IMG/VR virus record: IMGVR_UViG_3300020048_000108
Strand: one strand, 5' to 3'
Origin: an uncultured virus (IMG/VR IMGVR_UViG_3300020048_000108)
Taxonomy: Duplodnaviria; Heunggongvirae; Uroviricota; Caudoviricetes
DNA: 20,000 nucleotides
Shown here: positions 1,758 to 15,436 of the stretch, one piece after another
How the letters are laid out: each line of letters begins with the position of its first letter
Position numbering within the stretch: position 1 is the stretch's first letter
Translations under genes and position numbers: made by a program
The notes under the pieces: generated by a model
Told to the model about the DNA's origin: nothing
Database searches by the model: none
The model's input: only the letters and a program-made list of their open reading frames with translations

Positions 1758-1791
1758 TCCCTACACCTAGGGGACACTTTGAAGGCCCCAG
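1758..1791 (-). repeat. repeat family A copy 1 (34-bp intergenic element)
   Basis: tccctacacctaggggacactttgaaggccccag; its end pairs with adjacent ctctgggg (hairpin 1786-1809). Confidence 0.95.
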
Positions 1792-1819
1792 AGTAGATTA
1801 TCTCTGGGGTTGTGATCGT

Positions 1820-1990
1820 TCAGACTGCCTTACTGATACGATCAAAGTCTAACCAAATGGCACGATCTGTTCCGATTGAAGTCTCAAAGTCCCAGACAAG
1901 ATGTGTGGCATTCCTTCTATCAACACTGAAAGTCTCACAGATAGAATCTACTGCCTGACTGAAAGAAGTGAAACGTTTGATAGGAGTCAT
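1820..1990 (-). CDS. hypothetical protein (56 aa)
   Basis: MTPIKRFTSF...; ATG 1990 avoids overlap with the upstream gene. Confidence 0.65.
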   Translation of the reverse strand: MTPIKRFTSFSQAVDSICETFSVDRRNATHLVWDFETSIGTDRAIWLDFDRISKAV

Positions 1991-2024
1991 TTTGAAGATT
2001 GTATGGATGAATGTGTAAAGATTC

Positions 2025-2351
2025 TCAGGCAAGTCGCATTCCAGAGAAGAAAGGAATTGTGGAATACTCTGCACCCCACTTCGAACGCAGGAACCAAGTG
2101 TATGCCTTCTGAAATACACCTTCTCCTTCGATTCCGTGCACTTGAAGAATAGCATTCAGGCGGGACTTGGTGGTGTTTGACTGATACCCACCATCATAAA
2201 GACGAATGAAACCCTCACCAACCTCTGCGATCTTGTTACCGTGCAAGTATACAAAACTCACACCGTTAATGTTAACAACTTCGGTGTTATCTTGCTTCCA
2301 ATCAGTACCGTTGGTGATAGCAGCATTCATCAGAACTTCGATCTTGCGCAT
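2025..2351 (-). CDS. conserved phage hypothetical protein
   Basis: 108 aa with MRKIE..MNAAI..WKQDNTEV..VYLHGNKIA..GGYQSNTTKSRLNAIL motifs. Confidence 0.8.
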   Translation of the reverse strand: MRKIEVLMNAAITNGTDWKQDNTEVVNINGVSFVYLHGNKIAEVGEGFIRLYDGGYQSNTTKSRLNAILQVHGIEGEGVFQKAYTWFLRSKWGAEYSTIPFFSGMRLA

Positions 2352-2396
2352 GATGAGAATTGAGTGAGGTTTGAGTGACTTGGGGATTTTCGTTCT

Positions 2397-2430
2397 CCCC
2401 TACACCTAGAGGACACTTTGAAGGCCCCAG
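2397..2430 (-). repeat. repeat family A copy 2
   Basis: cccctacacctagaggacactttgaaggccccag. Confidence 0.95.
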
Positions 2431-2439
2431 GCATCTTTA

Positions 2440-2601
2440 TCAGTCCCGGTCGAACTCCTCAATGTATACTTCAACCCTCTCTGATGGTTCAAGGTTGAAT
2501 AGTTTTTCAAAGTCAATATCGCGGGCATTGAAATCACTTTGCACATTAAGATCCAGAGTGATTCGTACATGTTGCTTGTGTGCAATCTGATAAGAAACCA
2601 T
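2440..2601 (-). CDS. small hypothetical protein (53 aa)
   Basis: MVSYQIAHKQHVRITLDLNV...; ATG 2601 lies downstream of the promoter at 2633-2661. Confidence 0.7.
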   Translation of the reverse strand: MVSYQIAHKQHVRITLDLNVQSDFNARDIDFEKLFNLEPSERVEVYIEEFDRD

Positions 2602-2632
2602 GGGAAAGTCCTCCGTTTGTGTTGGTGAAAGT

Positions 2633-2661
2633 AGTCTAATATAGGGTGAGGTAGATGTCAA
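2633..2661 (-). promoter_or_regulatory. sigma70-type promoter
   Basis: Minus strand TTGACA-17 bp-TAGACT. Confidence 0.75.
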
Positions 2662-2736
2662 GTACCTTGGGGGTATTTATGAGGGGTTGTAGGGGATTTT
2701 GGAGGGGTTCTGTGGGGGTTTTGTGACCATGGGGTA

Positions 2737-2765
2737 TTGACAGATTTGCAAAGTGACGTTATAAT
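2737..2765 (+). promoter_or_regulatory. perfect-consensus sigma70 promoter facing a non-coding repeat array
   Basis: TTGACA(2737-2742)-17 bp-TATAAT(2760-2765). Confidence 0.85.
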
Positions 2766-2791
2766 GCATGCAAAGATCACAAGGTCTCGGA

Positions 2792-2906
2792 GGGTTTAAA
2801 TGATTCAAAGAGACTTACACCTGGGGGTTTAAATGATTCAAAGAGACTTGCTAACCTCAAGGGTTATAAGCATTCAAAGAGACTTGCTAACCTCAAGGGT
2901 TATAAG
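2792..2906 (+). repeat. tandem repeat array, period 33-36 bp (about 3.3 units)
   Basis: gggtt..aa...attcaaagagactt units at 2792, 2825 and 2861, partial at 2897; 35-nt exact duplicate at 2836-2870 and 2872-2906. Confidence 0.95.
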
Positions 2907-2981
2907 AGTTTTCCACAACTATCTAAAACACTCATATACATTAATTAATACATTTATAATCGTTTTTTATTGTTTTTTACC

Positions 2982-3296
2982 TTATTTTGATGGTAAATGA
3001 TGTTGTATCATCTCAATCCACTGATCTACCCATTCCTTGGATGCAGTAAACTTGATGGTTCTATTGTATTTCTTTTGTCCTCCAATGTGAGTATAAACAT
3101 CAACTGAAACATTGCGAGAATCTGATTCATCAACCTGGTATGCACCAAGGACTAACAAATGATTGAAACTATCAACTTGTGCAATAATGGCAGATCCAGA
3201 TTCGTTCGATTCAATATCCAGACTCCAAGGATTAGAGACAGGAGAGACTGCAATCCGATCAGTAACTGAGAGAGTAGTGTAACTAGTCATCATCAT
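2982..3296 (-). CDS. hypothetical protein
   Basis: 104 aa ORF in the gene run. Confidence 0.65.
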   Translation of the reverse strand: MMMTSYTTLSVTDRIAVSPVSNPWSLDIESNESGSAIIAQVDSFNHLLVLGAYQVDESDSRNVSVDVYTHIGGQKKYNRTIKFTASKEWVDQWIEMIQHHLPSK

Positions 3297-3310
3297 TTTG
3301 TGGTTTTTGA

Positions 3311-3513
3311 TTAGTTAAAACGTGATGCGAAAACTTGTGCATCTTTTTGTTTTTTGAAAGAGCGAAACTCTTTCGTTACCCAATAGCAATCACCTCGCAG
3401 AGTGTTTTCTTTGTAACAATCAACTTGAACATTCCAACCATTTTCAGACTTTCTAACCCAGACTTNNNNNNNNNNACTTTAACATCACCGAGAGTTGGAA
3501 GAATGTAAGTCAT
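3311..3513 (-). CDS. hypothetical protein spanning a scaffold gap
   Basis: ACTT is duplicated on both sides of the N gap; merging gives an open frame MTYILPTLGDVKVWVRKSENGWNVQVDCYKENTLRGDCYWVTKEFRSFKKQKDAQVFASRFN. Confidence 0.65.
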
Positions 3514-3537
3514 TTTGTGGCGAACTCCTTTGACTCT

Positions 3538-3741
3538 TTAAGAATAGCAGGTTTCAGACGCTGTGCTCATTTTGTGTGCCACCTTCTCAACTGGCACAGA
3601 GTAACGTTCTTTATACTGAATCATGTAATCTAGCAGTTCTCCAATATTCTTACGAACGTACTCATTGCGAAGTCCGGCATAATCATAAGCATCGTACAGT
3701 TTATGATACATTTCATCCCATTCTGTTTGAGTCATATTCAA
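3538..3741 (-). CDS. hypothetical protein
   Basis: 67 aa ORF whose C-terminus reads through a family B palindrome and -10 box. Confidence 0.65.
   Translation of the reverse strand: MNMTQTEWDEMYHKLYDAYDYAGLRNEYVRKNIGELLDYMIQYKERYSVPVEKVAHKMSTASETCYS
3541..3598 (-). promoter_or_regulatory. family B inverted repeat plus extended -10 promoter
   Basis: tgtgccac-cttctcaa-ctggcaca at 3575-3598; TGCTATTCT at 3549-3541. Confidence 0.7.
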
Positions 3742-3962
3742 ACCACCACATATTCAAGAGTTTGAATACACCAACCAGTTTCGTCAGTGATCATATCTGC
3801 AAGATACTCTAGAAAGTCTTCTTCATATTCAAAATCTTCTTCACATTCGTATACCTTACCAATCGTTTCGTTTGTGAGTTCAACCTGATAAGATTCGGGC
3901 AAAACTTCATTCTCATCATCACACTCGAAGTCATACTCAATATCAGTGATTTGAACTTTCAT
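3738..3962 (-). CDS. small acidic hypothetical protein
   Basis: 74 aa with ITDIEYDF...LADMITDETGWCI motif common in cyanophage small ORFs. Confidence 0.75.
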   Translation of the reverse strand: MKVQITDIEYDFECDDENEVLPESYQVELTNETIGKVYECEEDFEYEEDFLEYLADMITDETGWCIQTLEYVVV

Positions 3963-3994
3963 GATTGTTTGTTTGATGAAGTTGTGGAAGTTAA

Positions 3995-4174
3995 TCAGGC
4001 AGCACAGAAGGCAGAAGTATAATCTACTTCGCGAATCTCCATCAGAGCATAATCATAATCATTCTCAAGTTCCTCGCGGTAGGCATCAGCAGCAGACTTG
4101 CAATCGAACAGGCGCAGAGTATCGAACTCTGACCCGTCGTACTCATAACCACCGATCACAGCGTAGACTTGCAT
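3995..4174 (-). CDS. conserved phage hypothetical protein
   Basis: MQVYAVIGGYEYDGSEFDTLRLFDCKSAADAY...; start set downstream of repeat A (alternative ATG 4183). Confidence 0.75.
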   Translation of the reverse strand: MQVYAVIGGYEYDGSEFDTLRLFDCKSAADAYREELENDYDYALMEIREVDYTSAFCAA

Positions 4175-4202
4175 TTTGAACATTTTGGAGTTTTGCGTTG
4201 TG

Positions 4203-4236
4203 TCCCTACACCTAGGAGACACTTTGAAGGCCCCAG
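4203..4236 (-). repeat. repeat family A copy 3
   Basis: tccctacacctaggagacactttgaaggccccag; shares the following gcatctttatcag with copy 2. Confidence 0.95.
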
Positions 4237-4245
4237 GCATCTTTA

Positions 4246-4431
4246 TCAGATCAAGGTGGGGAATGGTTGTAGAAATACCCATTCATACTCTCCGTCTTCT
4301 GGATCTACCCCATCGACAACAAACTCGGAATAGATTGCATCTGATGTGGCATAATCTTTGAGAGATACAAAATACATACAACGCTCCATGAACGTATCAG
4401 TCAGGGCATCAATCAGTTGTTGTTTTTGCAT
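4246..4431 (-). CDS. hypothetical protein
   Basis: 61 aa ORF; stop 9 bp from repeat A. Confidence 0.7.
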   Translation of the reverse strand: MQKQQLIDALTDTFMERCMYFVSLKDYATSDAIYSEFVVDGVDPEDGEYEWVFLQPFPTLI

Positions 4432-4469
4432 AATGAAGAAAGTGAATTGAATGAATAGAAAAATGAACT

Positions 4470-4898
4470 TTAGAAAGTGCTAGAGAATACGAAACCATCT
4501 ACGAAATCAAAATCATACTTAAGATTCTGATTCCAGGTTGCTTCCCAATCAATCACCAGACCTGCAGGAAGACTATCATAACCATACACACTCTCATAGT
4601 ATTCTTCGGCAAAGGTTTCTTCATCAATGTATGAACCTTGATAAGCATGTCTTACGTTCTCAACATAACCCATATTGCCGTGATAGTTAACGAATGCATC
4701 GACAACATCGTAACCAAGATCCTCACCAACGCAGACGTATTCTTCATAATAGGCAATGAAATCATCTTCGGAGTGCAGATCAATGAACTCCAGAATGCAT
4801 CCAAGATCATAAGAATCTTCTTCGATCAGTTGTTGAATCTTCTCTAGAGTTTCCAGAGCAAACACTTCTTTGTAGTTAGCAGTCAGAGTGACGGTCAT
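4470..4898 (-). CDS. ardA: ArdA-like antirestriction protein (acidic DNA mimic)
   Basis: Very D/E-rich; AYQGSYIDEETFAEEYY...IDWEATW...YDFDFVDGFVF resembles the ArdA C-terminal domain. Confidence 0.75.
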   Translation of the reverse strand: MTVTLTANYKEVFALETLEKIQQLIEEDSYDLGCILEFIDLHSEDDFIAYYEEYVCVGEDLGYDVVDAFVNYHGNMGYVENVRHAYQGSYIDEETFAEEYYESVYGYDSLPAGLVIDWEATWNQNLKYDFDFVDGFVFSSTF

Positions 4899-4936
4899 TG
4901 GTGTAATGAATGAGTTTGAAATTGGACTTGAAAAGA

Positions 4937-5176
4937 CTATACAGTAACAGCAGACTTGCCGAAGGTACGAATCAACATCTCTTGAAACTTTTGCTTGTTA
5001 CCATTCTCCCAGCGGAGAAGATCTTCGGCAATAAGTGCATCATGAAACTGTTGAGTTTCCATCATCGACAGACCAGGATAGGCACGAGCATTCTTAATAC
5101 AATCGGCAGTGTAGTTCAACTGAAACTCAATACCTGCGTCGGTCGAATCTTTCACGAAGGAGTAATCTTTTTGCAT
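4937..5176 (-). CDS. hypothetical protein
   Basis: MQKDYSFVKD...; ATG follows an A/C-rich leader downstream of repeat A. Confidence 0.7.
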   Translation of the reverse strand: MQKDYSFVKDSTDAGIEFQLNYTADCIKNARAYPGLSMMETQQFHDALIAEDLLRWENGNKQKFQEMLIRTFGKSAVTV

Positions 5177-5192
5177 TGTGGTTTCGTTTGTG

Positions 5193-5226
5193 TCCTTACA
5201 CCTAGGGGACACTTTGAAGGCCCCAG
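5193..5226 (-). repeat. repeat family A copy 4
   Basis: tccttacacctaggggacactttgaaggccccag. Confidence 0.95.
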
Positions 5227-5238
5227 GTTAGATTATCA

Positions 5239-5415
5239 TCACAAAGGAAGTTTGCCTAGTGGTTTGCCTTTCTTGTGTGCTTCAATGTAATTTCGTGCTG
5301 ATGATTCGGTCCTGCAAAGTTTATCAAGTTGCTGACCATTGTGTATGATAAGATACTGATTTGCATACAAGATTCCTGCATATTCGCCATTATTCACTAT
5401 GAATCCTTTCTTCAT
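5239..5415 (-). CDS. small hypothetical protein (58 aa)
   Basis: Manual translation MKKGFIVNNGEYAGILYANQYLIIHNGQQLDKLCRTESSARNYIEAHKKGKPLGKLPL, ending TGA TGA TAA. Confidence 0.7.
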   Translation of the reverse strand: MKKGFIVNNGEYAGILYANQYLIIHNGQQLDKLCRTESSARNYIEAHKKGKPLGKLPL

Positions 5416-5536
5416 TTTTACACTTTCAAAAAAACAGGTGATTTTATTTGACTGGACGACCTTTCATACGGATGGGGCAAAAATCGCAGAAAATCACGTT
5501 TTGACCCCAGTGGTGGACTGGGGTCTCGTGTGAGAC

Positions 5537-6781
5537 TCACCTGCGAACGGTGCTGATAGCAGGTTCGCCCTCAACAAAAATTGTATTAACAACCGACTCA
5601 ACTGCGCTGGCAGTAGCTACACCAACCTTGCTGTACACTGGAATACAAACCAGACCGAACGATTTGGTATAGGAACTCAAATCGCCTGGTTGAATAGCAC
5701 CAGACTGCAACTTGGCAGCATCATCATGATGCAAACGAATGACTCGTCCAATAGTCTGCGAGATGGAAATAAAGTCCATGTTTCGCATAAACAATACTGC
5801 CTCAAGTCCTGACACATTGATACCCTCACTCAAAATGCTGTGATGTAGAACAACAAACTTCTTTGAGTTATCCTTACCCCATGCAGATAGGGTATCAAAA
5901 AAGACTTCACGATTGACTTTCTGACCATCAATAACCGCACCAGTCTTGGCAGTAATGTACATCCAAGAGTATCCACGTTGATTGAGTTTGGAGCAGAAAT
6001 CAGTTTGTGATACCAGTGCCACGATTTGCTTTGTCGTCTTTGCACAGATCAGAATCTTGCCGACAGAGTTCTCATCAATCGTTTCCAGAAGATTCTCTGA
6101 ATCACGATCGAAGTTAGTCTGCTTTCCGACTAACATTGGCAGTTGCTTGACTACAACTTTAGGGGGCACAATATACCCACCAGCAACTAGTTCAGGAGCA
6201 GCAACTTTGCAGATAACCTGACCATAAACCTCAACATCATTCATTCCAGGTTTACCCACTGCCAGACTATGTTTAGGAGTTGCCGTCAGGAAGAAACAAC
6301 GATTTGCATCCGCAGAAAAATACTCTGTTGCAGGAAAGAAGTTACGTTTGACGCTATTATGTGCCTCATCAAAGTAGATCGTATCCACATCAATCTCGGC
6401 ATCTTGAAGACGCGAAAGAGAGTTGTAGGTGGTAAAGATAATTTTGTGTGAGGACTTGTGATTCTCTACCCACTGACGAATTACAAGAGGACGAGTAGAA
6501 GATTCGTGATGCGTTTCTCCACTGTGAACGTGAAAGACTTCAGCATTGATGATAAACTCCAGAAACTCGCTAGAGAGTTGCTCTGCAAGCAGAATGCGAG
6601 GAGCAACAACAACAACCGTGTGAGGAGTTTCTGATTGAAACTGCCGAAGAGCATCATAGATCATCTTGAGAGTCTTTCCACCCCCAGTAGGAACAATCAG
6701 TTGACCCTTATCATACTTCTGCATTGCAGAAATACCACGTTGTTGATGCGGACGAAGTTGAGTTTGCATGAGATTCATCAT
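5537..6781 (-). CDS. superfamily 2 DEAH-box helicase (ResIII-like)
   Basis: Q-motif LRPHQ, Walker A PTGGGKT, DEAH, motif III TAT, motif V LSEGINV, motif VI QTIGRVIR; exact start uncertain (6781-6769). Confidence 0.92.
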   Translation of the reverse strand: MMNLMQTQLRPHQQRGISAMQKYDKGQLIVPTGGGKTLKMIYDALRQFQSETPHTVVVVAPRILLAEQLSSEFLEFIINAEVFHVHSGETHHESSTRPLVIRQWVENHKSSHKIIFTTYNSLSRLQDAEIDVDTIYFDEAHNSVKRNFFPATEYFSADANRCFFLTATPKHSLAVGKPGMNDVEVYGQVICKVAAPELVAGGYIVPPKVVVKQLPMLVGKQTNFDRDSENLLETIDENSVGKILICAKTTKQIVALVSQTDFCSKLNQRGYSWMYITAKTGAVIDGQKVNREVFFDTLSAWGKDNSKKFVVLHHSILSEGINVSGLEAVLFMRNMDFISISQTIGRVIRLHHDDAAKLQSGAIQPGDLSSYTKSFGLVCIPVYSKVGVATASAVESVVNTIFVEGEPAISTVRR

Positions 6782-6810
6782 CTAACAAGAGAACAATTTA
6801 AAGGACCCAG
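6782..6810 (-). repeat. repeat family A degenerate copy
   Basis: ctaacaagagaacaatttaaaggacccag; same orientation and intergenic context as other copies. Confidence 0.65.
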
Positions 6811-6812
6811 AT

Positions 6813-6974
6813 TCAGTTACCATTCAGAAAGTCGTGAATTGCTTCCTGATACTCTTCAAAGGTCGCGTAACGATTCTGAAGATGTTTGGGAACTTCCTTA
6901 CAGATAGGACGATTACATTCTGCAATCGTGTATCCTTTCTGTTGAACGTAGTCAGTATAAACGGATTGAGTCAT
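6813..6974 (-). CDS. small hypothetical protein
   Basis: MTQSVYTDYVQQKG...RYATFEEYQEAIHDFLNGN. Confidence 0.7.
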   Translation of the reverse strand: MTQSVYTDYVQQKGYTIAECNRPICKEVPKHLQNRYATFEEYQEAIHDFLNGN

Positions 6975-6981
6975 TTTGAGA

Positions 6982-7134: not shown

Positions 7135-7150
7135 TTTGAGTCGGTTTATG

Positions 7151-7184
7151 TCCTTACACCTAGGAGACACTTTGAAGGCCCCAG
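7151..7184 (-). repeat. repeat family A copy 5
   Basis: tccttacacctaggagacactttgaaggccccag. Confidence 0.95.
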
Positions 7185-7196
7185 GTTAGATTATCC

Positions 7197-7460
7197 CTAC
7201 CACGTTCCACGTTGTACATGAATCTTGCGAATCTCTCCATAAATGAACTTTTTAAGTTTCTCGTCTGTGGTATTATCAAAGGCATAATGCAGGCGATTTA
7301 GGTAATCATCCTGTGTGGCACATTTGACTACTTTTGAGTTTGTCATTCCGATTTCATTGAGTGACGAACCTGCTTTCCTTCGTGGTTGGGAGATTGCACC
7401 AGATGTTCTAAACTTGGTAGAAATCTTTGAGAGATTGGATGTTGCAAAATCAAGTTTCAT
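7197..7460 (-). CDS. conserved cyanophage basic hypothetical protein
   Basis: 87 aa; SNLSKI..KFRTSG...TQDDYLNRLHYAFDNTTDEKLKKFIYGEIRKI. Confidence 0.75.
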   Translation of the reverse strand: MKLDFATSNLSKISTKFRTSGAISQPRRKAGSSLNEIGMTNSKVVKCATQDDYLNRLHYAFDNTTDEKLKKFIYGEIRKIHVQRGTW

Positions 7461-7465
7461 AAAGG

Positions 7466-7472
7466 ATAAATA
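7466..7472 (+). promoter_or_regulatory. T4-type late promoter motif
   Basis: ATAAATA 26 bp upstream of the HNH gene start. Confidence 0.55.
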
Positions 7473-7498
7473 ATAGGTAACTTTGGTTTAATTTTCTA

Positions 7499-8218
7499 AT
7501 GATACATAAACATCACCTTATTCCTAAACATAGAGGTGGAAGCGATGATCCATCAAATCTTGTAAAAGTTACACCAACTCAACACGCTATGTTTCATTAT
7601 TGTGAATGGAGATTGTGGGGAAGTCATAAAGATTTTTGTGCTTACAAAATGATTTTGGGTGATGTTAAAAATCCAGAGTTTAGGAGAGCAAGAAATGAAG
7701 CATTTAAGGAGATTATTTTAGAAGGTGGAAGAAAATGGAGAGAGAATAATCCAGATAAAGTTAGAGAAAATGGAATGAAAGGAAATAAATCTCAAAGGGA
7801 AAAACTTAAGAAATACAATAGAGAAATCGCACAACAAAAGTGGGAAGTTATAACACCAAATGGAGAGATAATAATCATAGAGAACATAGCAAAGTTTTGT
7901 TTAGAAAACAATTTGCAAAAATCAAAAATGACTTTAGTATCACAAGGACAAAGAAAACATCATAAAGGTTACAAATGTCGTAAGATAACTGGAAATGTTA
8001 ATGAATATGATGGTGAATTGTCTTTATTTGAGTGGGAAATAACAACACCAAATAATGAAGTTTTTGTTGTAGAAAACTTAAAGACTTTTTGTGTTGAAAA
8101 TAATCTTAAAGAAGGAATGGTGTATAGAGTTGGAAGAGGAGAAAGAAAACACCATAAAGGTTATAGAGTTAGAAAAGTTGTTAAACAGGTTAAAAACTAT
8201 TTGGATAGGTTGGAGTAA
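7499..8218 (+). CDS. free-standing HNH homing endonuclease with duplicated C-terminal DNA-binding-like repeat
   Basis: HKHHLIPKHRGGSDDPSNLVKVTPTQHAMFH; two copies of WEI/V.TPN.E....EN...FC.ENNL...RKHHKGY; only convincing plus-strand gene; A-rich. Confidence 0.88.
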   Translation: MIHKHHLIPKHRGGSDDPSNLVKVTPTQHAMFHYCEWRLWGSHKDFCAYKMILGDVKNPEFRRARNEAFKEIILEGGRKWRENNPDKVRENGMKGNKSQREKLKKYNREIAQQKWEVITPNGEIIIIENIAKFCLENNLQKSKMTLVSQGQRKHHKGYKCRKITGNVNEYDGELSLFEWEITTPNNEVFVVENLKTFCVENNLKEGMVYRVGRGERKHHKGYRVRKVVKQVKNYLDRLE

Positions 8219-8224
8219 GTCATT

Positions 8225-8458
8225 TCAGTTACTTTCAGCAATTTGGTTGAGAACGTTACGGGCAAACTTCATAAAACCATAGGCAGTCACAGCACCACAA
8301 GGACCACTATAACCAGTGCTAATTTCATAACTATCAAGCAAATCTGAACCATTGTAAGTATTCACAATCAGCAGACAAGCATCATACAATGCTGCTTGAT
8401 GTTCTTCTTTTGAGTGAAACTGAATTGCGTTGTAACCAGTAGGAAGAGTCATAATCAA
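8225..8458 (-). CDS. hypothetical protein
   Basis: 77 aa ORF (alternative start 8452). Confidence 0.7.
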   Translation of the reverse strand: MIMTLPTGYNAIQFHSKEEHQAALYDACLLIVNTYNGSDLLDSYEISTGYSGPCGAVTAYGFMKFARNVLNQIAESN

Positions 8459-8736
8459 ACTAGATTAAGTTGAGGAGCAGGTTGAACAGAAAAGGTGCCG
8501 ATTCTGTCGCAAGTGATAGAAACAGTATCATAAGGAGCACCGATTTCATCTACCACTTCCCAGTAATCTTCACCCTCTTCAATTACAGCATAACCGAAAG
8601 TTCCGGCATTTGAGAGTTGATCAAGACCACAACGTTCTGCTTGTCGTTGTGTGGAGAATCGCTCTTTACGATTCCACCAACCGTTTCGGGCAACATCATC
8701 AGAAGGTCCGAAAGTGATGCAGATAAAGTCAGTCAT
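8455..8736 (-). CDS. hypothetical protein
   Basis: 93 aa ORF directly downstream of repeat A. Confidence 0.7.
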   Translation of the reverse strand: MTDFICITFGPSDDVARNGWWNRKERFSTQRQAERCGLDQLSNAGTFGYAVIEEGEDYWEVVDEIGAPYDTVSITCDRIGTFSVQPAPQLNLV

Positions 8737-8757
8737 TTAAAGTCGGTTTGAGTTTGA

Positions 8758-8791
8758 TCCTTACACCTAGGGGACACTTTAAAGGCCCCAG
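8758..8791 (-). repeat. repeat family A copy 6
   Basis: tccttacacctaggggacactttaaaggccccag. Confidence 0.95.
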
Positions 8792-8806
8792 GATAGATTA
8801 TTCATA

Positions 8807-9670
8807 TTAAAACCTCACCAGGTTAAAGTTAGCAGCAGAAAAGCATTCTCGATTTACAAGTTTGAAAATCAGATTATCGCTCTTGTAGACGAAACCTTCA
8901 CCGACAATCTTCTGATCTTGAATATAAGCAACAGGATTATCCGTTACAATCATACAGTCCATCAAATCTTCCTTAACCTCAATCATCGTAAGATACAGAT
9001 CTGCAAGTTCGCGACTACCAAGAATGTGAGTAAGATTGTCCCAGTTCAGTTCATCACCTTCACGAATCAGTGCATTGATTTGTTTCTTTGCTTCTACTGC
9101 TTCCTTTACATTCAGGAAGAGAACATTAGAGGTATCAATCTTTGGGAGATTGATAGGAAGAAAATCTACGCAAGGTTGAACAAACTTCACATTCTCGGTA
9201 TCACTAAAGAATGGTGCGCTACCGATTACATAGGCATTCTTCAGTTCATCATCAGTATGCCAAATAGTATGAGGAGCAACAATAATGTTTTGATCAACTA
9301 CTTCAGAAAACTTGTAAGTGACCGTATTGGGGCAATAAGTATCAGAACCGCCAAAACCAATAAAATCACATTGATAGATAGACTCTGTGACAGGCAGATA
9401 ATCAAAGCAAGCATGAAGAATATCTGCAACCTGACCCGTGTGGTTCTTATCAATTTCTTCATGAGAATGATTGATTTTGAGTTTAACTTTGTTGAAGACA
9501 GATTTAGTGCCGACACACCATTTGCCGTTTGCAGGATTTGTACCAAAAACTACACTGGGACTGCCATCTATCTTAAGGGAAACTTCATAATCAGAATTGA
9601 AGAAATTGAGGATAGAAAGATCTCCCGTGAGAATGCAATCTTCGAAGTGTTCTTGGTGTTTGTTTTGCAT
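8807..9670 (-). CDS. conserved phage protein with ligase/nucleotidyltransferase-like motifs
   Basis: NKHQEHFED, KIDGSP (KxDG), GTKSVFNK, YQCDFI, GEGFV, FKLVNR. Confidence 0.75.
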   Translation of the reverse strand: MQNKHQEHFEDCILTGDLSILNFFNSDYEVSLKIDGSPSVVFGTNPANGKWCVGTKSVFNKVKLKINHSHEEIDKNHTGQVADILHACFDYLPVTESIYQCDFIGFGGSDTYCPNTVTYKFSEVVDQNIIVAPHTIWHTDDELKNAYVIGSAPFFSDTENVKFVQPCVDFLPINLPKIDTSNVLFLNVKEAVEAKKQINALIREGDELNWDNLTHILGSRELADLYLTMIEVKEDLMDCMIVTDNPVAYIQDQKIVGEGFVYKSDNLIFKLVNRECFSAANFNLVRF

Positions 9671-9676
9671 GATCTT

Positions 9677-9736
9677 AGTATGACACAGAATCCGGAAGAT
9701 TTCAAGTGGTCGTGTGCCAGTTTCAGAACCGGCACA
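9677..9736 (-). promoter_or_regulatory. family B inverted repeat plus sigma70 promoter (leaderless transcript likely)
   Basis: tgtgccag-tttcagaa-ccggcaca at 9713-9736; TTGAAA-17 bp-CATACT; ATG 6 nt after the -10 box. Confidence 0.75.
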
Positions 9737-9751
9737 CCTTAAGAGTTTTAG

Positions 9752-9892
9752 TTACTTACGAAGAGGAGAATTGCCAAAGGAACGAAACACAGAAACGACA
9801 ATGATAAGCGTCGAAACAATACCAACCATGCCAAGGAAGGTAACACCATTGCCAGTAAAATCGAGAGTATTAACTGTAGTCATTTCAGTCAT
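9752..9892 (-). CDS. small single-pass membrane protein
   Basis: MTEMTTVNTLDFTGNGVTFLGMVGIVSTLIIVVSVFRSFGNSPLRK. Confidence 0.7.
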   Translation of the reverse strand: MTEMTTVNTLDFTGNGVTFLGMVGIVSTLIIVVSVFRSFGNSPLRK

Positions 9893-9893
9893 T

Positions 9894-10004
9894 TCAGGTA
9901 AGTTTGATGTAAGATTTGTTGATGATAGTTTGCCACTCATTGGATGCCGAAAGTCGTTGATCTACGATTACCCAACGACCTTGAAACTTAATAAGTTTTC
10001 TCAT
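9894..10004 (-). CDS. small hypothetical protein (36 aa)
   Basis: Manual translation MRKLIKFQGRWVIVDQRLSASNEWQTIINKSYIKLT; fills the gap exactly with TGATG coupling. Confidence 0.55.
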   Translation of the reverse strand: MRKLIKFQGRWVIVDQRLSASNEWQTIINKSYIKLT

Positions 10005-10138
10005 CAGTAATCAATGTTAGAGTTCAGGTAATCGTTAACGTTAAACTTTTCTTCATCAAGTTCGCGAAGTTCGGGAATATCAAGGTCAAAGATTTCACCT
10101 TGCATATCTTGAATCTCGCTCCAAAGTTCGTCGTACAT
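10004..10138 (-). CDS. small acidic protein (44 aa)
   Basis: MYDELWSEIQDMQGEIFDLDIPELRELDEEKFNVNDYLNSNIDY. Confidence 0.7.
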   Translation of the reverse strand: MYDELWSEIQDMQGEIFDLDIPELRELDEEKFNVNDYLNSNIDY

Positions 10139-10166
10139 TGTTTCGGTGCTTGTGGTTGTCTTTGTA

Positions 10167-10225
10167 ATCATAAGGCACCTAGAGCGTCTTCTAGGTGCCA
10201 CTGCGGCAGTTTCTAAAGTGTCACA
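10167..10225 (-). promoter_or_regulatory. family B inverted repeat, hairpin and -10 promoter
   Basis: tgcggcag-tttctaaa-gtgtcaca at 10202-10225; 10-bp stem ggcacctaga/tctaggtgcc at 10174-10199; TATGAT at 10172-10167. Confidence 0.65.
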
Positions 10226-10393
10226 TCATACTTCATAGAACTTATAGTGACGAATCTCTGACTGATAGAATGCTTGATCTTCGGAATCATTACAGAAACC
10301 GAGAAGATAGTTGCACATTTCGACCCGGTGATTACAAACATCTTGCAGAATCTCAGGATTACGTTGGAAGCAGTTGTTAAAGTCAACAATCAT
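10226..10393 (-). CDS. small hypothetical protein (55 aa)
   Basis: Manual translation MIVDFNNCFQRNPEILQDVCNHRVEMCNYLLGFCNDSEDQAFYQSEIRHYKFYEV. Confidence 0.65.
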   Translation of the reverse strand: MIVDFNNCFQRNPEILQDVCNHRVEMCNYLLGFCNDSEDQAFYQSEIRHYKFYEV

Positions 10394-10417
10394 CGGAATT
10401 CCCTCAGCAACAAATGT

Positions 10418-10476
10418 AGAATAACAGGATTTTGTGTCGTTTGGTGATTTTGTGTGCCACCTTGACGACTGGCACA
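10418..10476 (-). promoter_or_regulatory. family B inverted repeat plus extended -10 promoter
   Basis: tgtgccac-cttgacga-ctggcaca at 10453-10476; TGTTATTCT at 10426-10418. Confidence 0.7.
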
Positions 10477-10503
10477 GGAGGATTCAGTTGATTATAAGGG
10501 GGA

Positions 10504-10532
10504 TTGACAAAGTACGAAATCTGTATTAGACT
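10504..10532 (+). promoter_or_regulatory. plus-strand sigma70 promoter
   Basis: TTGACA-17 bp-TAGACT. Confidence 0.65.
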
Positions 10533-10717
10533 AGGTTTGTCATCAATGAAGATAAGTTGTATCTAATACTTTAAAGGGATGAGGTATAAAAGGGGGAAGG
10601 ACACCACTCCTTCCCTGATAGCAACCTACACCTTTATTTTTTATAATATCACCACAGGAGTAACTTTAACNNNNNNNNNNAGTCAACAATCATTCGGATT
10701 CCGTCAGCAACAAATGT

Positions 10718-10776
10718 AGAATAACAGGTTTCAGCGACGTTTGGTGGTTTTCTGTGCCACCTTTACAACTGGCACA
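10718..10776 (-). promoter_or_regulatory. family B inverted repeat plus extended -10 promoter
   Basis: tgtgccac-ctttacaa-ctggcaca at 10753-10776; TGTTATTCT at 10726-10718. Confidence 0.7.
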
Positions 10777-10979
10777 TCATCATTCAATTGTACCTGCAGT
10801 TGAGAAACAATTGTATCAACGAATGCCAGAACAGTTTGCATTACTTTAAGAACCATTTCTTTACCATTGTTTTCATTGAAGGCACGAACCGAATACTGGA
10901 AAACACCAACAACGATTGCGGAGATAGTAGCAACATTGAAAATCAGAGTTTGATAGAAGTTTTTGTAGTAATCTTGCAT
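10731..10979 (-). CDS. hypothetical protein with hydrophobic segment
   Basis: 82 aa ORF downstream of repeat A. Confidence 0.7.
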   Translation of the reverse strand: MQDYYKNFYQTLIFNVATISAIVVGVFQYSVRAFNENNGKEMVLKVMQTVLAFVDTIVSQLQVQLNDDVPVVKVAQKTTKRR

Positions 10980-11009
10980 TTTGTTTTTGGTTTAGTGCTG
11001 TGAGGATCA

Positions 11010-11043
11010 CCCTCACACCTAGGCGACACTTTCAAGGCCCCAG
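11010..11043 (-). repeat. repeat family A copy 7
   Basis: ccctcacacctaggcgacactttcaaggccccag. Confidence 0.92.
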
Positions 11044-11045
11044 AG

Positions 11046-11786
11046 TTAAATCATAAAACTCAAAAGTGGATTATTGATACGATCTCGTGCTACCGTAAAA
11101 TACTTTTCTTCCCTTTCAATTCCGATAAAATTTCTATTACAATTGACTGCAGCAACTCCAGTAGTACCACTTCCCATACAAGGATCTAAAATCACATCAT
11201 TCTCATTGGAAAAAGTACGAATAAGATACTCATATAGCAACACAGGTTTCTGTGTTGGATGATACTTACCTTCAGATTCTGCGGTTTTAAAATAGATTAC
11301 ACTTCTTGGGTAGCGAAGTCCAGTATCATTTTTAACATGTACTTCTTTAGTTTGCACTCCATATGCTTCAGTATCTCTTACTGCCTTACCCTTATCATAC
11401 GGAGTTCCTTGTGTCATTTGTGGGTTATATGTGGGTTGTTTTTTATAAAAAACAACCACCTCTTCATGAGCACGAAGAGGTTGCTTCTTTGCATTCAAAT
11501 AACCAGAGGACTTTGACTTCTCCCATACCATCGTGTACTTAAAATGTTCATAGTTTGAAGCAATCAGAACACTTGTAAATGGTTGTGCTGCTGTAGAAAT
11601 AACAGCACAATTTGGTTTGCATATCATATCAACTTTTTTCCAGAATGTTGGATAATCAATGATACTATCCCATTCATTCCTCTTATTAAGTGTTCCGTAG
11701 GGAAAATCTGTCAACAACAAATCAATACTTTGGAGTTCAAGATTGCCCAAAACATTGAACATATCGTCATTGAATAACTGAATCAT
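11046..11786 (-). CDS. beta-class N6-adenine/N4-cytosine DNA methyltransferase
   Basis: Motif IV IDLLLTDFPY precedes HPTQKP and motif I ILDPCMGSGTTG..RNFIGIE; ATGA coupling to the upstream gene. Confidence 0.93.
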   Translation of the reverse strand: MIQLFNDDMFNVLGNLELQSIDLLLTDFPYGTLNKRNEWDSIIDYPTFWKKVDMICKPNCAVISTAAQPFTSVLIASNYEHFKYTMVWEKSKSSGYLNAKKQPLRAHEEVVVFYKKQPTYNPQMTQGTPYDKGKAVRDTEAYGVQTKEVHVKNDTGLRYPRSVIYFKTAESEGKYHPTQKPVLLYEYLIRTFSNENDVILDPCMGSGTTGVAAVNCNRNFIGIEREEKYFTVARDRINNPLLSFMI

Positions 11787-12361
11787 TTTTGCAACCACTC
11801 TACAAATTTATTATAACTCACCTCGTCAAGTTTGAAGTCGGCACGATAGTCTGCATTGTAAATAGGACGCTTTGAACTGCGTTTGCGGTAAGGATTAATA
11901 AAGAAAATATTCAAATCCTTACCAGTTAGTTCTTTGAAAAGTGCAAGATAATATGCAAGAGAATCTTTACGACAAGCATTCTGGCCAGCAAAGATTGCAA
12001 ACTCTACATCATCAGGAACATCAGGAGATTGATCAAGTCCAATAAAATTAAGGATTGCACGTTCAAGATTGCAAAGATCCAAATAAGTCTTGCACTCTAT
12101 CATTTTTTTCAATACACCTTGAATATAGACGTGAGCGTCAACTTGAAGATTGTTCAAGCACCTACCACCAACTATCATTGTTCTTTTGTAATCATTCTTT
12201 TTCGGATCAAAACCCAAATATTCACAAGTTTTGAAAGCGAGATTCTCATAGACTGTACCTGAACCAGACCTCGCCTTACCTCCCCCCTTATTTTTATGAA
12301 GGAGAGGAAGTTGATCAACTTCAAATTCGTAATTTTCAATCAGTGTGGAAAATTGAGTCAT
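11783..12361 (-). CDS. putative PD-(D/E)xK restriction endonuclease-like protein
   Basis: G..YE...QVDAHVY...MIECKTYLD pattern; translationally coupled to the methyltransferase. Confidence 0.65.
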   Translation of the reverse strand: MTQFSTLIENYEFEVDQLPLLHKNKGGGKARSGSGTVYENLAFKTCEYLGFDPKKNDYKRTMIVGGRCLNNLQVDAHVYIQGVLKKMIECKTYLDLCNLERAILNFIGLDQSPDVPDDVEFAIFAGQNACRKDSLAYYLALFKELTGKDLNIFFINPYRKRSSKRPIYNADYRADFKLDEVSYNKFVEWLQK

Positions 12362-12370
12362 TGGTTTTGG

Positions 12371-12404
12371 TGATTATAATGAGAGGACACTTTAAAGAAC
12401 GCAG
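12371..12404 (-). repeat. repeat family A degenerate copy
   Basis: tgattataatgagaggacactttaaagaacgcag; core GGACACTTT retained. Confidence 0.7.
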
Positions 12405-12435
12405 ATTATTGTTAATCTGGGGGACAGAGTTTCAA

Positions 12436-12747
12436 TTAGTCTTCCCGTGTTCCAAAATACCATAGAACACCAAGAATGACAATAGCAGGAATTGTATAGT
12501 ACCAATACGTTACAATTACACCCAATAGAAGCAAAGCACCCAAAAGTAGAGCACCTGCAGAGGAATCGCCACCACCAGAACTTGAGGAACTACTTCTACG
12601 AACTTGATGAAGATTTACGATCTGCTGAACATCACCATGCTTTGCATAGATTTGTTCTTTTGCACCACTAAATGTTGCTGCTTCTACTTCAGTGTTAATC
12701 CGTCCAACACGAGAATTAACAAATACTTCTGCTCTCCAAGTTGCCAT
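12436..12747 (-). CDS. conserved cyanophage membrane-anchored protein
   Basis: MATWRAEVFVNSRVGRI..., Ser/Gly linker, C-terminal hydrophobic helices. Confidence 0.8.
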   Translation of the reverse strand: MATWRAEVFVNSRVGRINTEVEAATFSGAKEQIYAKHGDVQQIVNLHQVRRSSSSSSGGGDSSAGALLLGALLLLGVIVTYWYYTIPAIVILGVLWYFGTRED

Positions 12748-12749
12748 AA

Positions 12750-12944
12750 TTAATTTGCTTGTGCTTTGAGTCGTTCAATAGTTGCTACAATGTGCTCTAG
12801 TGCAGCACAGGAATATCCAACTGCATAGGGATAACTTTTCTCCGGATCACTGGGTGCAGTACGACACACTTTAAGAACATCTTGTAGTCCATCAATTACA
12901 GTTTCAAGAGTAGTTTCAGGAATTGTAACATACTTCATAATCAA
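12750..12944 (-). CDS. hypothetical protein
   Basis: 64 aa with SYPYAVGYS motif. Confidence 0.7.
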   Translation of the reverse strand: MIMKYVTIPETTLETVIDGLQDVLKVCRTAPSDPEKSYPYAVGYSCAALEHIVATIERLKAQAN

Positions 12945-13138
12945 CCTCCGTAGATTTCATCAAAAAGAGGAGTATCACCGAACAGTTCTTTAAACAAATC
13001 CACAGGAGGATTGTTCAGTTGTTCTTCAAGACGTTTGAGAGACTTGATCTTGCTTTGATAGAACTCCATTTCCTTTTTTGCTTTCAAGTAAGCATTACGA
13101 GCATCATAAAGTGCTCTTTGGATTTCAACTTGGTTCAT
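12941..13138 (-). CDS. small coiled-coil hypothetical protein
   Basis: 65 aa ORF directly downstream of repeat A. Confidence 0.7.
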   Translation of the reverse strand: MNQVEIQRALYDARNAYLKAKKEMEFYQSKIKSLKRLEEQLNNPPVDLFKELFGDTPLFDEIYGG

Positions 13139-13149
13139 TTTGAGTTGTG

Positions 13150-13183
13150 TCCTTACACCAAGGCGACACTTTGAAGGCCCCAG
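13150..13183 (-). repeat. repeat family A copy 8
   Basis: tccttacaccaaggcgacactttgaaggccccag. Confidence 0.95.
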
Positions 13184-13190
13184 GTTTCAT

Positions 13191-13751
13191 CTATTTGGCG
13201 TCAGTGAGATTCTTAAGTTTAATTTGATCTGGTGTTGTTCCTCGTCTTTCTGCTTCACCTCTTCTTGCCAACTCTTGAGCATATTTGTGTCCGTCTCTGG
13301 TAATTTGTTTTCTTTTTTCTCTACTTATTCCAACCACTGCTCTTTTAGGTTGATCAGCAGGTCTCTTATCTTCTGGTGCTTTAGTTTTAGTGGAGAGAAG
13401 TTCTGTTGCAGTTTTAGTCTTTGCACCTGCTTCTCTTGCTTTTCTTTCTAAACGTGCCTTACGTTGTGCTTCTTTAAAGGATAATGCAGCAGAACCACGT
13501 TCTTGAGTTGGTTGTTGTACTCTTTTAGCACTTTGTCTTTGAGTTCCAATATCAGATCTTGATTTGTACGACGAAGGTGTTCTTTCCTGCCCCTGCTTAC
13601 CCTTATCACTCTTTTGAGACATTCTACGAATCTCTGGCGTACTTTTCTTTCTTTCCTGTCCAACTTTTCCTACATCTTGAGGTGCCGATGCTGGTTTATC
13701 GGTCTCGTAGTATGCTTCGGTGATGGACATAAACTGGCGAAAAGTTTTCAT
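13191..13751 (-). CDS. basic low-complexity protein with MKTFxxF N-terminus (probable late, head-packaged protein)
   Basis: MKTFRQFMSITEAY; K/R/Q-rich; ATAAATA late motif at 13783-13777. Confidence 0.7.
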   Translation of the reverse strand: MKTFRQFMSITEAYYETDKPASAPQDVGKVGQERKKSTPEIRRMSQKSDKGKQGQERTPSSYKSRSDIGTQRQSAKRVQQPTQERGSAALSFKEAQRKARLERKAREAGAKTKTATELLSTKTKAPEDKRPADQPKRAVVGISREKRKQITRDGHKYAQELARRGEAERRGTTPDQIKLKNLTDAK

Positions 13752-13779
13752 CTTCTACTTTTAGATAATCTCCATATAT

Positions 13780-13965
13780 TTATGCAGCAGATGCTTTTGT
13801 TCCCTTAAATACCCGACCATCTTTATAGAATTGTTGAACACGTTCACGACGCAACATTAACAAATTGGCATATGTCACTTGTTGCTCTCCATTCAAACGA
13901 AAGTTATTCTGCCTCCAGATAGTTTGAAGTTCACGAATCTGATAAAGAATTTCAGCGGATTTCAT
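13780..13965 (-). CDS. conserved cyanophage hypothetical protein
   Basis: 61 aa; WRQNNF...LRRERVQQFYKDGRVFKG. Confidence 0.75.
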   Translation of the reverse strand: MKSAEILYQIRELQTIWRQNNFRLNGEQQVTYANLLMLRRERVQQFYKDGRVFKGTKASAA

Positions 13966-14107
13966 AGTTTTTGTGTGTATTTTCGGTGAGATTAATGGTT
14001 GATTGTTGAATAGACCTTACACCAGAATCGAGAATTGGTGCAAGTCCAGAAAATCCTACAGTTGTTGATGCAATTCCTAGAATAAAACCGAAGAAGAATG
14101 CTTTCAT
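13952..14107 (-). CDS. small membrane protein (51 aa)
   Basis: Manual translation MKAFFFGFILGIASTTVGFSGLAPILDSGVRSIQQSTINLTENTHKNYEIR. Confidence 0.6.
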   Translation of the reverse strand: MKAFFFGFILGIASTTVGFSGLAPILDSGVRSIQQSTINLTENTHKNYEIR

Positions 14108-14124
14108 TTTAGATAGGGAGAGTT

Positions 14125-14265
14125 TCAGTAATCGTAGTCAGAATTCAACAATGAATTGAAATTTTTTGAATCGGTTTCTTCTTCTTCAAGGAGATCATCG
14201 TAACATGCTTCTACAAAATCAAATCCAGAGGATTCTTCAATACAAAAATCATCAAAGTCGTTCAT
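14125..14265 (-). CDS. small acidic protein (46 aa)
   Basis: Manual translation MNDFDDFCIEESSGFDFVEACYDDLLEEEETDSKNFNSLLNSDYDY. Confidence 0.65.
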   Translation of the reverse strand: MNDFDDFCIEESSGFDFVEACYDDLLEEEETDSKNFNSLLNSDYDY

Positions 14266-14292
14266 ATTCAGTATTTCTATTGTAGTTTGTTT

Positions 14293-14472
14293 TTACCTTG
14301 TTGATGCCTTGAGTATTTCTATTTTATTATAATCTTCTCTATACACAAGAACTCGTGGGGGATTAAATTGTGGTTTTGTGTATAATTCAATCACAATGTA
14401 TTTCTCAGCCACAAAGACAACAACTCCTTGCATTTCCTTATAAATTACTTGTGTATTTTGAGGGAAAGTCAT
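14293..14472 (-). CDS. small hypothetical protein (59 aa)
   Basis: Manual translation MTFPQNTQVIYKEMQGVVVFVAEKYIVIEL...; ATGA coupling. Confidence 0.7.
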   Translation of the reverse strand: MTFPQNTQVIYKEMQGVVVFVAEKYIVIELYTKPQFNPPRVLVYREDYNKIEILKASTR

Positions 14473-14762
14473 TGAAAAAACTTTTCTAATGGTGTTTGTT
14501 GTATTTGCATTGCGGTGTAGTTTCTAGTATTCTTGAAATCTACAACTTTACCAACGGTTTTGCTATTTACCGGGGCAAAGAACTTGCATTTTTTATAATC
14601 ATAAAACCCCCACACTGATTTGGTTAGTTTTCCATCATTGTAATCAAACTTACGGGTGTTGCATAACCAAATAGAAAACACATTACGTTTGAATTCTTCT
14701 ACTTGATAAAAATATCCTTCAGGTGGTTTGTGTAAAAATTGAGGAATTAAATCAACAGTCAT
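14469..14762 (-). CDS. conserved cyanophage hypothetical protein
   Basis: FLHKPPEGYFY...SVWGFY...FFAPVNSKTVGK..TRNYTAMQ; ATG 14762. Confidence 0.8.
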   Translation of the reverse strand: MTVDLIPQFLHKPPEGYFYQVEEFKRNVFSIWLCNTRKFDYNDGKLTKSVWGFYDYKKCKFFAPVNSKTVGKVVDFKNTRNYTAMQIQQTPLEKFFQ

Positions 14763-14916
14763 ATTTTTTTTCTTGCGACATCCGTTTGATTTGTTCGTTA
14801 AGTTGATTGATTTCGTGTTGTTGATTTGCAATTTTAGATTGCAAAAAATCAATCCTATTCCTATGCTGTTCTTTAAGTTGAAGTGCTAGATGATTGTTGT
14901 AAAAATTAGCGATCAT
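14752..14916 (-). CDS. small coiled-coil protein (54 aa)
   Basis: Manual translation MIANFYNNHLALQLKEQHRNRIDFLQSKIANQQHEINQLNEQIKRMSQEKKYDC. Confidence 0.6.
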   Translation of the reverse strand: MIANFYNNHLALQLKEQHRNRIDFLQSKIANQQHEINQLNEQIKRMSQEKKYDC

Positions 14917-14918
14917 AA

Positions 14919-15158
14919 TTAAGTCGTAAATGCGTCAACTACACGGGATTCCTCATTTTCAAGAAGAGGAAAGTGTTGAGATTTTAGTATATTTTCACGG
15001 AGTTTTCCATAATGTTCTGTCCAGGTTTCATTGTCCCATTTCACTACTATATCAAAACACTCTTCGTTATTTTCAGCAATCACATTTAGCAATCCGCCAT
15101 ATTCAGATTGCCACTGTGGAACAAAATAATCCACCAGATAGAGAAACTTTTGTGCCAT
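14919..15158 (-). CDS. conserved cyanophage hypothetical protein
   Basis: YLVDYFVPQWQSEYGGLLNVIAENNEECFD...SRVVDAFTT. Confidence 0.8.
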   Translation of the reverse strand: MAQKFLYLVDYFVPQWQSEYGGLLNVIAENNEECFDIVVKWDNETWTEHYGKLRENILKSQHFPLLENEESRVVDAFTT

Positions 15159-15182
15159 TAACCTCATTTGTTTAACGAATAC

Positions 15183-15211
15183 ATCTTAAGACCTTATAAC
15201 CAAAATGTCAA
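15183..15211 (-). promoter_or_regulatory. sigma70-type promoter
   Basis: Minus strand TTGACA-17 bp-TAAGAT. Confidence 0.7.
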
Positions 15212-15370
15212 GTGAATTCAGATANNNNNNNNNNACTTGCTTCAGATTCTGCCCACACAAAGAAATCATCAAGCATTTTTTCAGTTTGAAGTTCTTTGCG
15301 TTCATCACTATAATCAATCATTGTTTCCTGTGCTTTTTGGATAAGATCTTTAATGCGCTTTGAAATCATT
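15208..15370 (-). CDS. small hypothetical protein spanning a scaffold gap
   Basis: MISKRIKDLIQKAQETMIDYSDERKELQTEKMLDDFFVWAESEAS-gap-SEFT*; end is inferred. Confidence 0.55.
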
Positions 15371-15402
15371 TTTTGATTTAGTTCCTATCTCTGGTAGATT
15401 TG

Positions 15403-15436
15403 TGATTACACCAAGGGGACACTTTGAAGGCCCCAC
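15403..15436 (-). repeat. repeat family A copy 9
   Basis: tgattacaccaaggggacactttgaaggccccac. Confidence 0.92.

Follow-up and report, generated by a model that had tools for sequence, protein, structure and literature searches.

What is the function of a 34-bp sequence that stands, always on the same strand, at the heads of small genes in the genome of an uncultured virus? The question is raised by the IMG/VR record IMGVR_UViG_3300020048_000108, a contig of 71,694 bp (a partial genome) whose last 20 kb, hereafter the window, were analysed. A preliminary description had proposed that the repeat is a non-canonical phage early promoter that may also act as a recombination junction. The promoter proposal fits the evidence collected here and can be refined to a likely transcription start at the purine of a conserved T/R step (the slash marks the boundary between -1 and +1), an element without a sigma70 -10 box, and a candidate protein that reads it. 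We put it somewhat above an even chance that the repeat is a phage-specific early promoter with its +1 at T/R, switched on by an injected 186-aa protein reading the box upstream of the start.

The contig carries genes for a major head protein, portal, prohead protease, terminase, late sigma factor, UvsY and the baseplate, and its helicase (5537-6781) shares 55-63% identity with those of Synechococcus and Prochlorococcus myoviruses (in the best 40 of 430 records); to judge from these genes, the source is a T4-like cyanomyovirus. The window covers a region of small genes lying upstream of the baseplate genes; S-SM2 and Syn9 are arranged likewise. We infer that its small genes belong to the early class, from this position and from an early-gene regulatory element of T4-like cyanophages that Doron et al. 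are said to have described in the ISME Journal in 2016 (10:1437).

The 34-bp element in the window and in other cyanophages

The nine strong copies of the preliminary description were recovered at their positions (Table 1), on one strand and with 0-3 mismatches to the consensus, which found no match in 200 shuffles. Scanned with a position weight matrix across the whole contig, these copies score 54-65 bits and two weak copies 13.7 (at 12371) and 9.2 (at 6777); the next best contig site scores -0.9, and the best among 5 shuffled contigs 0.3. Only these eleven sites were found, in agreement with the described absence of the element beyond 15.44 kb. The weak copy at 12371 had been placed correctly, while the other begins at 6777 and not at 6782; both have recognisable counterparts at homologous places (the same gene heads) in the close relative L087.

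Every copy stands at a gene head, and eleven small-gene groups are headed in this way. The gap from the preceding stop codon is 2-31 nt, as had been noted, and the next ATG follows 2-52 nt behind the predicted +1. Read in gene direction, the element is CTGGGGCCTT-N-AAAGTGTCN-NCT-WGGT/GT, comprising a lineage box from -27 to -18 (CTGGGGCCTT here), a common AAAGTGTCC from -16 to -8, and TAGT (WGGT in this lineage) from -4 to -1. The strong copies were said to lack host-type boxes, and indeed TAnnnT occurs in 0/9 of them and a promoter scan found no site there. None of the 14 terminator-like sites found by a scan adjoins an element copy, and the ATAAATA late motif (the TATAAATA-type box of T4 gp55 promoters) occurs at 24 minus-strand places of the contig, none of them inside a copy. 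The Shine-Dalgarno-like word TAAGGA directly follows the predicted start (predicted +2 to +7) in 4/9 strong copies; an ATG at +1 is found in 0/9, unlike in most other lineages.

For comparison, 498 distinct copies were collected from 87 loci outside the lineage of the window phage. Five loci were judged spurious and excluded manually, and a filter (less than 60% T at -1) removed two more. Because AA and G of the core were fixed in the calling of copies, these columns carry no independent weight. S-SM2 carries at least 10 copies of the same build with a different upstream box; the upstream 10-base box is nearly constant within one phage and different between lineages. The 3' part of the element in these lineages is TAGTAT or TAGTGT, resembling a -10 box (TAnnnT fits 399/498 copies). 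A metagenome scan for close relatives gave three contigs (L085-L087), of which L087 has AGGTGT in 6/11 copies; WGGTGT is found in 18/25 distinct copies of the window phage's lineage, and xGGT in 4/498 elsewhere. Sigma70 recognition does not easily explain a whole array that has lost TA yet kept box, core and T/R; such an array suggests that the copies homogenised one another or came under selection by a reader that had changed.

The exact consensus was found at 0 IMG/VR loci, and shorter patterns gave one unrelated-looking single match at a contig end. GTDB genomes scanned for a host motif gave 9 single matches, none cyanobacterial by title, which were taken as chance. A literature search (covering few subscription papers and no supplements) found no description of the element or of the reader protein. 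Apparently new here are the likely T/R start register, the lineage-wide loss of TAnnnT, and the residue-to-base pairs described below.

Predicted transcription start and candidate reader protein

The reading frames behind the element point to the start. Of the TAGT/ATG copies in relatives that could be scored, 136 in all, 133 have this ATG in the frame of the gene that follows. There is no frame bias for GTA (49/34/48 over the three frames) or ATA copies (29/17/23), and ATGs upstream of the T/R base are in frame in only 32/163. The bias is present under each of 14 box prefixes, with the caveat that many copies head homologous genes. The open reading frames (ORFs) that begin at TAGT/ATG number 68 distinct ones, with conserved N-termini and no ATG, GTG or TTG in codons 2-12; transcription beginning 7 nt behind TAGTAT would leave them without their only start codon, which argues against TAGTRT as a -10. 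Among 70 distinct upstream regions of the phrog_455 family, the ATG lies at the T/R base in 25 and exactly 6 nt behind a -10-like [TC]AnnnT hexamer in 15 (including the window gene at 9670), with other spacings in 7 and 23 unclassed. On the simplest reading this gene looks leaderless in both settings, which places the +1 at T/R.

The best-kept free positions are T(-1) (487/498) and R(+1) (494/498), compared with only 399/498 for TA..T, and RNA polymerases usually prefer to initiate at Y(-1)R(+1). With the +1 at T/R, positions -12 to -7 read TGTCCY, which is no sigma70 box. Transcription thus likely starts at the purine of T/R, and TAGTRT is likely no sigma70 -10, as far as sequence can tell. 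The spacing may also resemble that of T7/SP6 or sigma54 promoters.

The candidate reader, encoded at 13191-13751, has 602 relatives; searches of Pfam, PHROG, PDB and Atlas gave no family or solved-structure match. AlphaFold models most of the chain as disordered and gives a confident helix at 144-170 (predicted template modelling score, pTM, 0.27). Family N-termini such as MKTFQEFIAEA can be set beside MKTYQEFIAEA of T4 IPII/IPIII; residues 4 and 7 are nearly invariant and the glutamate is conserved, as in T4 capsid targeting, for which residues 4 and 7 matter (PMC9026906, accessible part). The late motif [AC]TAAATA lies upstream of 64/68 distinct reader genes, compared with 45/10,600 random 30-mers, and this late promoter supports packaging in the virion. 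The protein is predicted to be packaged in the head and injected with the DNA. Co-occurrence was scored in 37 of 80 helicase-selected loci, those of at least 12 kb: the reader and at least 3 elements are found together in 10/37, and neither in 27/37. The reader is absent from Syn9 and present in S-SM2 (SSM2_065), and its gene usually lies directly beside one element copy.

The box co-varies with a part of the protein. Across 50 reader proteins (below 90% identity), box distance goes with residues 137-176 of the reader (rho 0.35-0.37), whereas residues 1-120 show no such relation (0.03). The linker RPxxQPKR goes with boxes ending GGCCTT in 18/18 proteins, compared with 0/32 of the others. CTGA boxes are a better test of co-variation than this clustered linker rule: their 7 proteins are scattered on the N-terminal tree (6 changes; 118/500 shuffles as low) and all have Q at helix position 6. 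In the residue-base pairs (48 proteins), helix position 6 has Q with A(-24) in 7/8 and K with G in 22/24, and helix position 10 has K with G(-26) in 10/10 and R with T in 28/35; glutamine often contacts adenine, and lysine guanine. From the reader helix of S-B05 a TACTCACC box was predicted for this phage, and such a box does occur there at two gene heads, where the core is more diverged. The C-terminal linker and helix of the reader are predicted to read the lineage-specific box. A lead only is that the N-terminal type of the reader may set the -4/-3 bases: VGK-type N-termini go with 12/29 non-TA copies, compared with 42/369, but several VGK loci are all TA, and few lineages are involved.

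In the mechanism that we propose, the 186-aa protein would be packaged in the head and injected with the DNA before any phage transcript is made. It would bind the lineage box through its C-terminal linker and helix, and the box-bound protein would recruit host RNA polymerase, which would start at the T/R purine; no phage polymerase was seen on the partial contig. As a by-product, the ~34 identical bases per copy would allow general T4-type recombination to excise or insert a gene between copies occasionally, and may homogenise the copies. It is possible, though short of probable, that one branch of the T4-like cyanophages uses for its first genes a class of promoters free of a sigma70 -10, with a virion-injected, largely disordered protein as sigma substitute and a swappable recognition code in its short linker and helix; each lineage would then activate only its own promoters, and recombination between copies would rewrite the whole promoter set when the reader changes.

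How T4-like cyanophages switch on their first genes is the wider question, to which the analysis contributes a candidate protein, predicted start bases and a residue-to-base code. These predictions can be tested in the cultured phages S-SM2, P-TIM68, SynMITS9220M01 and S-B05, and controlled gene expression in cyanobacteria could also make good use of a promoter-reader pair that is small and orthogonal.

Possible crossover between copies

The proposed role as recombination junction holds for single cases (two exact cassettes in L087 and one element-to-element joint); the element is not the main organiser of shuffling. In L087 a 140-aa and a 105-aa gene each lie between two copies; at the corresponding places of the window a single copy connects the outer flanks. 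This is the expected product of a crossover within the repeat, as shown for the promoter/stem-loop cassettes (PeSLs) of T4-type phages (PMC2839356, in its accessible part). In a contig of another strain an element-to-element joint connects 7150 with 8758, which may be a misjoin, and another joint, 11044 to 12422, has only 20 letters on one side. A second comparison, of assembled contigs, gave no clean element-to-element joint (that of 7182 to 15419 has 21 letters on one side).

The alignment of breakpoints that the preliminary description called for did not bear out a general cassette role. Among the junctions testable against L085-L087, 6/10 with the element and 10/22 without it are broken (hand table, p=0.35); against 100 more distant loci, the proportion of junctions kept is 0.02 with the element and 0.15 without (p=0.09). 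HNH genes and other segments are gained or lost away from elements. Since breakpoints are not significantly enriched at elements, the copies can be seams, not sole organisers of shuffling; they appear to serve occasionally as crossover point for gene gain and loss. No recombinase had been seen in the window, and none was found among the 43 window ORFs and 28 other ORFs scanned on this partial contig.

The cargo named earlier was recovered as an ArdA-like anti-restriction gene (phrog_36653), the helicase and an N6/N4 methyltransferase; the supposed nuclease at 11783-12361 belongs to phrog_10849, which is only a family of unknown function. The methyltransferase and the unknown gene form a pair (11046-12361) between a weak and a strong copy, with a different pair in L087 (9205-10550), and this looks like an exchangeable restriction-modification cassette.

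Competing explanations, known systems and neighbouring features

Several observations weigh against a promoter read by the 186-aa protein. A cleavage or processing site would yield the identical frame signal, and the TAnnnT of most copies elsewhere (399/498) is a good look-alike of a sigma70 -10, which we treat as a melting region and start codon coincidence. The RPxxQPKR/GGCCTT label is clustered on the N-terminal tree (3 changes needed, 2 forced), and some of the co-variation could arise from the linkage of the reader gene to a copy if copies are also homogenised. Neither copies nor proteins are independent samples, and the 10-versus-27 table includes near-identical phages. No sigma domain 2 or 4 fold or profile was found in the reader (AlphaFold model, family and structure searches).

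The frame bias from T/R onward would also be explained if the element were an RNA-level signal (a site of cleavage, antitermination or translation on read-through transcripts), with the arginine-rich protein recognising the box in its RNA form, as lambda N does boxB. The lack of a terminator-like site at any copy makes read-through possible, and the reader is basic and disordered with one helix. We nevertheless hold this unlikely, because no hairpin is common to the box types (most copies here fold at about -6 to -12 kcal/mol, the TACTCACC, ACCAGCCC and CTGTCCCC types at about 0), Y(-1)R(+1) matches the initiation preference of RNA polymerase, and a late promoter with a capsid-targeting start suits a factor required before phage transcripts exist. 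A conserved RNA hairpin in the element was rejected on the folding energies, which differ across box types. Quite unlikely, in our view, is that TAGTRT serves as the -10 of a host sigma70 promoter whose -35 is replaced by an activator box, a variant of the Syn9 early element; the abundance of TAnnnT in other lineages and the resemblance of the shared half to the right half of the Syn9 dyad suit it, but a start 7 nt behind TAGTAT would delete the only start codon of the 68 ORFs, TAnnnT is absent from the strong window copies, and the Syn9 dyad lies ~30 nt upstream of its -10-like hexamer, compared with 3 nt here.

The same promoter might instead be served by a different factor that was not seen, such as a sigma-like protein or a polymerase encoded off the contig, with the 186-aa protein binding the box for some other purpose such as repression, DNA protection or DNA entry. 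The contig covers only 71.7 kb of the genome, and none of the folds known from transcription initiators is present in the protein; its strict co-occurrence with the element and the residue-to-base co-variation nevertheless implicate it, the large proteins of the contig have no DxDGD polymerase motif, and we regard this alternative as improbable. A virion RNA polymerase on the contig was rejected on the same absence of DxDGD from the large ORFs, the 2605-aa protein being DUF4815/phrog_358. The least probable explanation, to which we give very little credence, is an integron-like attachment site of a site-specific gene-cassette system with a secondary promoter role. It would account for the two exact element-gene-element cassettes, the 7150-8758 joint in one contig and the concerted change of TAGT to AGGT across copies. 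It is opposed by breakpoints not significantly enriched at elements, by the many changes elsewhere (HNH genes, dyad boxes, gene heads), by the lack of a recombinase among the scanned ORFs of the partial contig, and by a fixed relation to start codons that an attachment site does not need.

With the phage-specific promoter thus preferred, the element can be compared with known systems. Like the PeSLs of RB49/phi1, T4/PST and KVP40/nt-1, it forms co-oriented intergenic repeats in a hyperplastic region near insertions and deletions, with element-flanked genes gained and lost (PMC2839356, PMC4122927, accessible parts). A PeSL consists of a sigma70 -35/-10 promoter and a terminator stem-loop, according to the part of PMC4122927 available; the element has neither sigma70 boxes nor terminator stem-loop, and has instead a lineage-specific box and a co-varying protein. 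In phages without the element (loci L013, L019, L024, L043 and L050), the phrog_455 gene follows a GC hairpin with a T run and TG-TAnnnT, with the ATG 6 nt later, an arrangement that, read from its motifs, is a true PeSL-type terminator-promoter unit with a leaderless start.

The Syn9 early element is likewise a motif repeated at the heads of small-gene groups, in the same helicase-containing Kyanoviridae region, and the half-site AAGTGTCC resembles its dyad half. In the Syn9 sequence, however, the dyad stands ~30 nt upstream of a -10-like hexamer and the Syn9 region has 0 copies of the 34-bp element, which has one half-site-like 9-mer 3 nt before the hexamer and no dyad. Four Syn9-type dyads occur in the window (Table 1), each ~30 nt upstream of TATTCT or CATACT; the remaining 51.7 kb of the contig contain no such dyad. 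Two promoter systems stand side by side in this region. In its workings the element resembles a phage-specific early promoter with a second use as a PeSL-like seam, and it is neither a PeSL nor the Syn9 dyad element.

The N-terminus of the reader shares MKTF..F..EA, with residues 4, 7 and the glutamate, with T4 IPII/IPIII, which are also basic proteins (PMC9026906, accessible part). Beyond this start no similarity of the reader to them was noted. To our knowledge, T4 internal proteins are not known as promoter readers. T4 MotA/AsiA and gp55 are phage proteins that redirect host RNA polymerase to phage promoters without a host -35, and T4-like cyanophages are described as lacking MotA and AsiA (PMC5780444, in the part accessible). 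MotA promoters retain a sigma70 -10, which the element apparently lacks, and the candidate reader is predicted to act first, from the virion. The PlmA/CGRE1 site, described in the accessible part of its source as a palindrome 55-57 bp upstream of the start, was rejected as the identity of the 34-mer, with no match.

Table 1. Element copies and associated features of the window (all on the minus strand)
Feature	Position	Strand	Predicted +1	Remark
Element copy	1758..1791	-	1764	
Element copy	2397..2430	-	2403	
Syn9-type dyad box	3576-3597	-		
Element copy	4203..4236	-	4209	
Element copy	5193..5226	-	5199	L087: two copies around extra 105-aa gene
Decayed element copy	6777..6810	-		Before helicase gene; clearer L087 copy at same place
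Element copy	7151..7184	-	7157	L087: two copies around extra 140-aa gene
Element copy	8758..8791	-	8764	
Syn9-type dyad box	9714..9735	-		Upstream of sigma70-like -10 CATACT; ATG of gene 8807-9670 lies 6 nt behind -10; control for +1 register
Syn9-type dyad box	10454-10475	-		
Syn9-type dyad box	10754-10775	-		
Element copy	11010..11043	-	11016	
Decayed element copy	12371..12404	-		Before phrog_10849 and methyltransferase pair; only copy holding TATAAT
Element copy	13150..13183	-	13156	Directly behind candidate reader gene
Candidate reader gene	13191..13751	-		186-aa basic protein (47 K+R, 24 D+E); capsid-targeting-like N-terminus; linker ~129-142 and helix ~143-170 track box
T4-type late promoter motif ATAAATA	13777..13783	-		Upstream of candidate reader gene; motif match
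Element copy	15403..15436	-	15409	Most upstream in transcription direction

Other features of the region lie apart from the element. The HNH endonuclease genes at 643-1044 (minus strand) and 7499-8218 (plus strand) are each missing from related-strain contigs, with breakpoints not at elements. A 110-bp direct repeat (10381-10490 and 10681-10790) flanks an N gap, and the strains in runs X1 and X4 omit 300 bases; the pair may be two alleles scaffolded in tandem. A gene-poor stretch at 2792-2896 holds three direct repeats of 33-36 bp, near a perfect TTGACA-17-TATAAT on the plus strand (2737-2765) and a late motif at 2674; close to the array end, it is possibly an origin or an antisense promoter. 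The terminase large subunit (L174:70-2706, minus strand; 879 aa) contains an extra internal stretch matching phrog_5989, which is possibly an intein.

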